A stretch of 24,000 bases of DNA, taken from positions 3,001-27,000 of the forward strand of contig JAVQSZ010000008.1 in assembly GCA_033581555.1 (NCBI GenBank), in the 5' to 3' direction. Both the position numbers and the translations under genes were made by a program. Of this stretch, positions 20,151 to 23,942 are shown piece by piece. The first letter of the stretch is position 1. Each line of letters opens with the position of its first letter. This DNA is from Nitrososphaerota archaeon. GTDB lineage: Archaea; Thermoproteota; Nitrososphaeria_A; Caldarchaeales; Calditenuaceae. Under the pieces are notes generated by a model that saw nothing but the letters and a program-made list of their open reading frames with translations, was not told the origin of the DNA and did no database searches.

Positions 20151-23100
20151 ATGGTGAAGGGCTCGATAGCCGCGATCAAGTTCGGGCTCCTCTCGCCCGA
20201 GATGATCCGGAGCATGGCCGTCGCGGAGATCTCCAACCCCGAGACCTACGACGAGGACGGTGCCCCGATCGCGACCGGTGTGATGGATCCGAGGCTTGGG
20301 ACCCTCGAGCCCGGACAGAGGTGCAAGACCTGTGGGAACACCTACCTCAACTGCCCGGGGCACTTCGGGTACATCGAGCTGGCAGTCCCGGTGATACACA
20401 TAGGCTACGTCAAGGTCATCCACGAGCTCCTCAGGTCTACGTGCAGGTCCTGCGGGAGGCTCCTGCTCCCCGAGGAGCAGATCGCCAAGTACAAGGCCGA
20501 GGTCGAGAAGCTCAAGTCCGAGAACAGACAGTACAGGCACGTCTTCTACAGGGTCAAGCAGATAGCGATGTCGACCAACGTCTGCCCTCACTGCAGCGAG
20601 AAGCAGGTCAAGGTCGAGCTGGAGAAGCCTATGACGTTCTACGAGGCGACCGCGCAGGGGATGGTCAGGCTGACCGCGAACGTCGTCAGGCAGAGGCTCG
20701 AGAAGATACCTGATGGGGACCTGGAGCTCCTCGACCTGGACCCGAAGAGCGCCCGCCCCGAGTGGATGGTCCTGACGGTCCTTCCCGTACCGCCGGTCTA
20801 CGTGAGGCCCTCGATCACCCTCGAGACCGGTTACAGGTCCGAGGACGACCTCACCCACAAGCTCGTCGACATCCTGAGGGTCAACCAGAGGCTCAGGGAC
20901 GCAATAGCCTCGGGCGCTCCTTCCCCGGTGATAATCGAGCTGGCGGACCTCCTCCAGTACCACGTCACGACCTACATCAACAACGAGGTCCCGAACCTGG
21001 CCCCGGCGCAGCACAGGTCCGGGAGGGTCCTCAAGACGTTGGCCCAGAGGCTCAAGGGGAAGGAGGGGAGGTTCAGGCTCAACCTCTCCGGGAAGAGGGT
21101 CGACTTCTCCGCGAGGACCGTCATCTCGCCTGACCCGAACATCGACATCGACGAGGTCGGAGTCCCGATAGAGGTCGCGATGCAACTTACGGTCCCCGAG
21201 TCGGTGACGCCCTGGAACAGGGAGAAGCTCAAGCAGCTGGTCAGGAACGGCCCCTACGAGTACCCGGGGGCGAGGTACGTCATAAGGCCCGACAAGAGGA
21301 TCATCAGGCTGAAGTTCGTCCAGGACCTGAACGAGCTCGCAGAGCAGCTGGACGTCGGGTGGGTCGTCGAGAGGCACCTGATGGACGGGGACATAGTGCT
21401 CTTCAACAGGCAGCCCAGCCTCCATAGGATCTCGATCATGGCCCACAGGGTCAAAGTTCTCCCCTTCAAGACCTTCAGGCTCAACCTGATGGTCTGCACG
21501 CCCTACAACGCCGACTTCGACGGAGACGAGATGAACCTCCACGTTCCTCAGAGCGAGGAGGCCCAGGCCGAGGCCAGGCTGTTGCTGCAGGTCCAGAGGA
21601 ACGTGATCTCGCCGAGGTACGGCGCCCCGATCATCGGCGCCATCAGGGACTTCCTCACCTCCTCCTACCTGCTCACCGCTAAGGCGGAGCTCGACAAGCA
21701 GTTCGTGGGCCACCTGCTCGCGGCCGCAGGCTACTCCGGGCCCCTGCCCCCGCCGAAGGGGTCGGGAGGGGGGTGGAAGGGGGCCCAAATCTTCAGCCTC
21801 CTGCTCCCGAAGGGCCTCAGCTACGAGGGCCAGGCCGCCTTCAGCCCGGACGACAAGGTGGTCGTAAGGAACGGCGAGCTGGTCGAGGGTTACGCCGACA
21901 AGGCGCTGATCGGCGTTGAGCGGCCCAACAGCCTCCTCCACCGGGTCGCGAGGGACCACGGGCCCGAAGAGGTCGCGAGGTTCCTCAACTCCCTGATCAG
22001 GCTCGCCAACACCTACATCAACCTCAGGGGCTTCACGCTGGGTATCGAGGACCTCACGGTCCCGCCGAGGCTCTACGAGGAGAAGGCCAAGTTGATCGAG
22101 CAGATGGAGCGGGAGTACCAGAACCTCTGGAGGAGCTACGTCGAGGGCACGATCGAGGTGGGTCCCGGTCAGACGCCGGAGAGGGCCTTCGAGGGCCAGC
22201 TCCTCGAGCTGCTCTCCAGGGTCAGGGACAAGATAGGCTCGACGATAAGGAAGCACTTCCCTCCGACGAATCCGATCGTCGTGATGGCCAGGGTAGGCGC
22301 GAGGGGTAGCAGCCTCAACATCGACCAGATGACCGCGATAGTCGGGCAGCAGGCCGTCAGGAGGGAGAGGCCGAGCAGGGGCTTCACCGACAGGGTCCTG
22401 CCCCACTTCAAGCCCGGAGACCTCTCGCCCCCGGCCAGGGGCTTCGTCTACGACGCGTTCATCACAGGCCTCGACCCGATCGAGTTCTTCTTCCACATGA
22501 TGGGCGGAAGGGACGGGCTCGTCGACACCGCGGTCAGGACCCAGCAGAGCGGTTACATGCAGAGGAGGCTGATCAACGCGCTCGAGTCGCTCTACGTCGA
22601 GTTCGACGGCTCGGTGAGGACCTCCGACACCAAGCGGATCGTCCAGTTCCTCTACGGCGAGGACGGCGTCGACCCGGCGAAGAGCGACCACGGCATGCCC
22701 TTCACCCCGAGCGTGATCGTCTCGAAGGTCCTCGGAGAGGCCAAGCCCTCCGGACAGCCGGCGACCGAGGAGGAGGTCGAGAGGGTCGCCTCCGGTTACA
22801 GGGACCTGATCCCACCGAAGTGGCTCGACGAGCTCGTCAGGACGGTGAAGGCGAAGAGGGTGCCCTCCGACGTTCTCGAGCAGGTCTTCAGGTCGGCTTA
22901 CCAGGCCTACCTCCAGAGCCTCGTCGAGGTCGGCGACCCGGTCGGGATAGTCGCGGCCCAGTCGATAGGCGAGCCCGGGACCCAGCTGACGCTGAGGACC
23001 TTCCACTTCGCGGGCGTCAGGGAGCAGAGCATCCTCCTGGGACTCCCGAGGCTGATCGAGATCGTCGACGCGAGGAGGGAGCCCTCGACCCCGATAATGA

Positions 23101-23942
23101 GGATCCACCTGAAGCCGCCCTACGACTCCGACCCGAAGCTCGCGAAGCAGGTCGCGAGGAACATCCAGTCCACCTACCTAAAGGACATCGTCACGTCCTT
23201 CAGCGTCGACCTGAGGAGGGGTCAGCTGGTGATGAAGCTGGACCCGGAGGCGATGAGGGAGCTCGGGGTCACCAAGAAGCACCTCGAGTCAGCGCTCAAG
23301 CAGTACTCCCCGCAGGTCCTCGAGAGGGAGCTCAGGGTCACGGTACCGAAGGCGCAGCTGACCGACGTGACCTCGTTCAGGGAGAGCGTCCTCTCGGTGA
23401 AGGTGAAGGGCTTGAGGAGGATCACGAAGGCCATCGTGAAGCGGGAGGGCGACGAGTACTACATCGAGACCGAGGGCTCCAACCTGAAGGAGGTGCTGAG
23501 CGTCCCTGAGGTCGACCCGAAGAGGGTCAAGACCAACGACATCCACGAGGTCGCGGAGGTCTTGGGCATCGAGGCCGCGAGGGCCCTCATCATCGACGAG
23601 ATCGTCAACGTCCTGAAGGAGCAGGGGCTCGACGTGGACGTGAGGCACATCATGCTAGTCGCGGACATGATGACCGTCGACGGTTCGGTCAAGCAGATCG
23701 GGAGGCACGGCGTCGTGAGGCTGAAGAGCAGCGTCCTCGCGAGGGCCGCGTTCGAGATCAGCGTCCAGACCCTCCTCGAGGCGGCGATGAGGGGCGAGAC
23801 CGACTACCTCAGGAGCAACGTCGAGAGGATATTGATGGGGAAGGAGGTCCCTGTGGGCACCGGGATGGTCCAGCTCTTGATGAAGTACGTCCCTCCGAAG
23901 GAGCCCCAGACCTCCGCAGATCAGCAGAGCGACGGGTCCTGA
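20151..23942 (+). CDS. rpoA: DNA-directed RNA polymerase subunit A (Rpo1), with A' and A'' encoded as one continuous ORF
   Basis: ATG 20151 lies 7 nt after GGAGGAGGTGG and 2 nt after the rpoB stop. The ORF contains the zinc motifs [14 protein letters not shown] and CRSCG...CPHC, the catalytic [10 protein letters not shown], the bridge helix [23 protein letters not shown] (A' features), then the trigger loop [22 protein letters not shown] (an A'' feature). No stop codon intervenes. Confidence 0.96.
   Translation: [1263 protein letters not shown]

Follow-up and report, generated by a model that had tools for sequence, protein, structure and literature searches.

The DNA analysed here is a stretch of 24,000 nucleotides (the window, to which all coordinates below refer) from a metagenome-assembled genome (MAG) of a hot-spring-type archaeon of the Caldarchaeales ("Aigarchaeota"), an order placed by NCBI within Nitrososphaerota. 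The genome amounts to 1.43 Mb in 72 contigs, is 90.6% complete and has a G+C content of about 60-65%; the window covers positions 3001-27000 of its contig 8. Our subject is rpoA, the gene for RNA polymerase's largest subunit (Rpo1), which was found on the plus strand at 20151..23942 as a single gene of 1263 codons holding the A' and A'' parts together, as seen in the list of open reading frames (ORFs), the translation, and the Pfam and NCBIfam matches.

The rpoA frame and its operon

An earlier note on this DNA had described a continuous frame from the ATG at 20151 to the TGA at 23942, and translation of the whole interval bore this out, giving 1263 residues with the terminal stop as the only one. 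The same note had seen no stop or frame change around 22620-22740, and direct reading of the junction DNA over the wider interval 22560-22860 likewise found it open. The longest ORF in the rpoA frame formally starts at a GTG at 19977; the ATG at 20151 was preferred because it lies 2 nt past the stop of rpoB, because the Shine-Dalgarno-like motif GGAGGAGGTG stands upstream of it (20134..20143, plus strand, by direct reading; 8-17 nt from the ATG), and because relatives align from residues 1-6 of the resulting protein.

All five Rpb1 domains (1-5) were matched in order by Pfam, and the NCBIfam equivalogs of both subunits scored above their cut-offs on the one protein. For A' these were NF006336 (1219.3 bits, cut-off 819) and TIGR02390 (1204.7 bits, cut-off 1042.55), each over residues 4-861, and for A'' TIGR02389 (441.9 bits, cut-off 420.65) over residues 887-1245, corresponding to model positions 2-367 of 367. 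The part homologous to A' (Rpo1N) was accordingly delimited at residues 4-861 (20160..22733, plus strand) from the two A' models and the alignment to Saccharolobus chain 2pmz_A, and that homologous to A'' (Rpo1C) at residues 869-1245 (22755..23885, plus strand) from TIGR02389 and Saccharolobus chain 3hkz_C. The hallmarks which the earlier note had reported for both parts could all be located in this single plus-strand frame. These are the N-terminal zinc motif CxxC...CxGH (residues 58-71; 20322..20363) and the catalytic Mg-binding motif NADFDGD (residues 453-459; 21507..21527), both located in the translation, the bridge helix (residues 785-806; 22503..22568), placed by motif position and conserved with respect to Saccharolobus A', and the trigger loop (residues 935-956; 22953..23018), placed in the same way and conserved with respect to Rpo1C chains. 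More Cys pairs are present at residues 98-101 and 145-148. The sequence has these features of an A-type rpoA: matches to the A' and A'' models, an open junction and the catalytic and mobile elements.

Directly upstream of rpoA lie rpoB and rpoH, giving the operon order rpoH-rpoB-rpoA. The first operon gene, rpoH (Rpo5; 16418..16765, plus strand), matched Pfam PF01191 with an E value of 4e-26. Its ORF encodes 115 residues, of which the Rpb5_C domain occupies only 50-112, leaving about 49 codons ahead of the domain (16418-16565), so that the true start may be further downstream; either this 5' part extends the protein at its N-terminus, or the ORF was called too long. rpoB (Rpo2; 16762..20148, plus strand) shares its first 4 nt with the end of rpoH, and its TGA stop at 20146-20148 is 2 nt ahead of the rpoA ATG. 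The earlier note had also called rpoB unsplit, correctly: the ORF list gives one gene of 1128 residues with Pfam Rpb2 domains 1-7 in order. In many archaea rpoA is followed by rpl30e-nusA-rps12. These genes were not found downstream of rpoA, either in the window end or in the surrounding locus (L001), where a convergent minus-strand ORF of at least 417 residues follows instead (window 23943-24000; L001:5299-6789), and the operon thus appears to stop at rpoA. The only Pfam match of this convergent ORF was sub-threshold (Flg_new_2, 21 bits).

The junction between the A' and A'' parts

That the subunit is split in Sulfolobales, Thermococcales and methanogens, as the earlier note had stated, agrees with solved structures in which Rpo1N and Rpo1C are separate chains. 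The split A'/A'' type is that of Thermoprotei, Euryarchaeota and the majority of DPANN and Asgard archaea. The domains and catalytic motifs of the query were collinear with the Rpo1N and Rpo1C chains of Saccharolobus/Sulfolobus, Thermococcus and Pyrococcus (PDB 2pmz, 3hkz, 2waq, 4qiw and 8cro); the identity of the query protein to solved enzymes is 50% or higher. Saccharolobus A' (2pmz_A, 880 residues) aligned through its residues 4-877 to query residues 4-862, with 717-877 falling on 701-862, and Saccharolobus A'' (3hkz_C) aligned through residues 10-391 to query residues 869-1245. Between the two, at query residues ~860-868, the split enzymes have a stop and restart, whereas the query frame continues via a short linker.

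Locating the break by alignment had been proposed in the earlier note, and was done with the Saccharolobus chains and with A' and A'' ORFs extracted from 14 split-gene loci, which we aligned with 16 fused forms. The break mapped to query residues 860-868 (nt ~22728-22754) in 14/14 split forms, and the junction with its linker was placed at residues 860-875 (22728..22775, plus strand) from this alignment together with those to the PDB chains. The stop plus new start present there in the split representatives is absent from the window. The linker of fused forms is short and poorly conserved, that of the query beginning GEAKPSGQP. Judged by the aligned sequences, the junction is positionally homologous across fused and split forms.

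This corrects one detail of the earlier note, which had taken the Met at 22695 as the approximate start of A'', giving 848 + 415 codons. Met849 (22695..22697, plus strand) falls inside the conserved tail of A' (SDHG-M), is replaced by K or E in most relatives and aligns to a Lys within the C-terminal tail of Saccharolobus A', and it lies 11-19 codons too far upstream; since the breaks of the split forms map to residues 860-868, the equivalent split would be ~865 + 398 codons.

Some split forms carry Lys/Glu-rich extensions at the junction, as seen in an uncultured archaeon (co94_320; L089) and in a genome of family f12 (G083; L014); one of this pair has ~70 extra residues at the A' C-terminus and the other ~100 extra at the A'' N-terminus. 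In split forms this position tolerates an interruption of the chain and even added segments some 40 to 100 residues long; given the large extensions, long disordered insertions are tolerated at the break point.

Eukaryotic Rpb1 and Rpc1 and bacterial beta' each consist of one chain and have their core in common with the query (E values down to 1e-262 to Rpb1). The query differs in its length of ~1263 residues, against 1400-1970 for Rpb1, Rpc1 and beta', and in being without the heptad repeats of the C-terminal domain or eukaryote-specific insertions.

Fused and split genes among relatives

The closest database proteins were 95-60% identical to the query and ~1262-1275 residues long, and came from MAGs labelled Candidatus Caldarchaeales, Aigarchaeota, Nitrososphaerota, Ca. 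Wolframiiraptor and Ca. Caldarchaeum. Within the order sample, a single full-length frame was found in 39/39 matched genomes (4 families, 11 genera). A close relative (G028) listed with "1 TAA" was considered as a secondary split and rejected, the TAA being the terminal stop of a single ORF of 1272 residues. In the class sample rpoA was matched in 73/76 genomes, and the junction was without a stop in all 72 of those having that region assembled; fragmentary matches were cut at contig ends and not at the junction.

The phylum sample (301 genomes) held a mixture of fused and split families. As its matches read through stops, it yields the fused/split pattern at family level only, without exact counts. 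Separate A' and A'' were verified directly in families f7, f12, f14, f20, f21, f25, f27 and f28, where the two ORFs either overlap in another frame or have a single in-frame stop between them; fused families are f5, f6, f10, f13, f15, f17, f18, f19, f22, f26, f30, f33, f40 and f44. Listed frame length and internal stops were rejected as evidence of fusion after 20 loci had been fetched: of nine phylum rows with internal stops, 6 were true in-frame splits and 3 were fused genes whose terminal stop had been counted in. In-frame splits with one stop (TAA, TGA or TAG) and an A'' start 0-3 codons later were observed in several lineages (L104-L110), the genomes being G146 (f27), G109 (f21), G329 (f20), G221 (f25), G193 (f7) and G188 (f12). 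As A' and A'' share a frame in these genes, one point mutation would give the fused form.

An ORF test on 80 loci of a named collection found 68 fused and 12 split. The fused loci belong to Caldarchaeales/Aigarchaeota, Ca. Geocrenenecus, Bathyarchaeia, Nitrosocaldus, Nitrososphaera, Nitrosopumilus, Cenarchaeum, Nitrosotenuis and Geothermarchaeota, the rest being a few records whose titles are non-specific or wrong; the split loci belong to Hadarchaeota, Hodarchaeota, Methanosarcinales, Woesearchaeota, Ca. Culexmicrobium and one uncultured archaeon. Full-coverage tblastn matches had made the genes of Hadarchaeota, Methanosarcinales, Woesearchaeota and Hodarchaeota candidates for fusion, which were rejected as the ORF test showed them to be split. 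One typical fused archaeal rpoA (L046; DATKOK010000090.1, a 32 kb contig), Bathyarchaeia-like, of 1282 residues and 52% identical to the query, was found in a MAG titled 'Candidatus Methylomirabilota bacterium'; probably the contig was mis-binned or the bin carries the wrong label.

A maximum-likelihood tree of 50 Rpo1 sequences was built with IQ-TREE (LG+G4, quick search, 1274 columns), the A' and A'' of split forms being concatenated. One branch, with a support of 100 in the Shimodaira-Hasegawa-like approximate likelihood ratio test (SH-aLRT), parted the 30 fused from the 20 split forms; in a 30-sequence version of the tree the SH-aLRT value of the fused/split branch was 99. In the 50-sequence tree the query belonged to a clade of five Caldarchaeales sequences (SH-aLRT 100), on the side that holds fused forms only. 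As the two states are parted by a single branch, the tree requires no more than one change between them, and the fusion is therefore best read as an old, vertically inherited trait of the clade.

Origin of the unsplit state and its significance

We regard this gene, with great confidence, as an ordinary Caldarchaeales rpoA that holds the whole largest subunit in one gene, in a fused state that is vertically inherited and is the published norm of the clade. On the evidence of the ORF, the whole subunit would be made as one polypeptide of ~141 kDa, to which the A' part would contribute clamp, bridge helix and active-site Mg site, and the A'' part jaw, cleft and trigger loop. The covalent joint would be the variable linker of ~10 residues, probably at the surface, exactly where other archaea have a stop and restart; rpoA would be the last gene of a tightly coupled rpoH-rpoB-rpoA operon, and the fused state is common to every examined member of Caldarchaeales, Nitrososphaeria, Bathyarchaeia and Geothermarchaeota. 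Weighing against this reading are that we infer translation as one polypeptide from the sequence, that the tree is unrooted and came from a quick search under LG+G4, and that it holds no identified Korarchaeia sequence, the fused state of Korarchaeota being taken from the literature alone.

An open frame in a 72-contig MAG might be an artefact of assembly or sequencing, in which a true stop or frameshift at the junction was lost; the same open frame recurs in the 72/72 independently assembled relatives of the class and in 68 named loci of related classes, and no indel was seen in the linker on alignment with close relatives, which leaves this explanation with a negligible probability. Hardly more probable is a recent re-fusion of split A' and A'' specific to the genus or family. 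Secondary re-fusion is reported for some Pacearchaeota, and the GTDB phylum of the query itself has split forms, some with one in-frame stop whose loss could fuse them, but every sister family is fused, as are the class as a whole and Nitrososphaeria, Bathyarchaeia and Geothermarchaeota, and the tree needs one change only, on a deep branch with an SH-aLRT of 100. The earlier note had offered either a phylogenetic marker or a secondary re-fusion: the marker stands, though it is one already published, and for this lineage the single change of state speaks against the re-fusion. That the one ORF gives rise to two polypeptides, by internal initiation near the junction or by proteolysis, so that the enzyme is functionally of the A'/A'' kind, we also consider very improbable. 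Nothing direct favours it; a GAGGAGGAGG run, formed by Glu codons near nt 22769-22778, looks like a Shine-Dalgarno motif, but no in-frame ATG, GTG or TTG was found within the codons just past it, and Met849 sits inside the A' tail without a Shine-Dalgarno motif upstream. Internal starts and Shine-Dalgarno motifs were sought at Met849 and at the junction, and none was convincing; the junction alignment showed a variable linker without a conserved cleavage motif.

A deeper question concerns polarity. The fused rpoA of the whole cluster may descend from one ancient re-fusion of an ancestrally split gene, and so be a derived synapomorphy, an event that would need just a point mutation, given that several split lineages have one in-frame stop. 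We hold this to be a real possibility, though we lean somewhat away from it; it is contrary to Da Cunha et al. 2017, who argue that the fused state is the pre-split state retained (PMC5484517). As the tree is unrooted and polarity hangs on the archaeal root, retention of an ancestral unsplit gene and a single basal re-fusion are not separable here, and a re-fusion of this age, if true, concerns the clade and not this window.

Elsewhere in the window, a gene cluster at 3-11544 encodes a Bmp/PnrA-type ABC transporter (ATPase, two permeases and binding protein), a molybdopterin hydroxylase large subunit, and AllH-like, FdrA-like (CoA-ligase fold), cyclase-family and AllG-like proteins, a gene content that suggests nucleobase catabolism. 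ARAGORN placed a tRNA-Ala(GGC) on the minus strand at 11632-11719, which at 88 nt is longer than a standard tRNA.

The unsplit state of rpoA in this group is on record. In Table 1 of Nunoura et al. 2011, Ca. Caldiarchaeum subterraneum, Thaumarchaeota and Korarchaeota have the entry "fusion" for RpoA, and Crenarchaeota and Euryarchaeota the entry "split" (PMC3082918), and Da Cunha et al. 2017 used the single-polypeptide A-type against the split A'A''-type as a phylogenetic marker, adding Bathyarchaea (PMC5484517). A 2026 paper on archaeal RNA polymerase evolution (PMC13257274) contains no discussion of the split, and in PMC7554672 rpoA appears merely as a marker. The query has no architectural difference from the RpoA of Ca. 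Caldiarchaeum subterraneum, Thaumarchaeota and Korarchaeota, which have the same A' and A'' in one ORF of ~1260-1280 residues. Ca. Caldiarchaeum is of the same order, with rpoB unsplit in both, and differs in species or genus only; full-length identity to the query is 60-69% for relatives that bear the label Caldarchaeum or Aigarchaeota. The earlier note had foreseen that a taxon survey might show the unsplit form to be the documented norm of the clade, and both the class sample and these two papers do so; for that reason the observation is correct but not novel. The unsplit rpoA is real, but normal and already published for Caldarchaeales and their sister classes.

The gene in the window can be annotated as rpoA (Rpo1, fused A'/A''), with an architecture typical of its clade. 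Automatic names in the NCBI style call such proteins "subunit A'", which understates the content of the fused protein. The rpoA finding brings no biology of a new sort. Whether rpoA is fused or split already serves as an established rare-genomic-change marker where the archaeal root is debated, and the survey re-confirms it as a clean character on more than 100 additional genomes, with one change, no class exception and a homologous junction.

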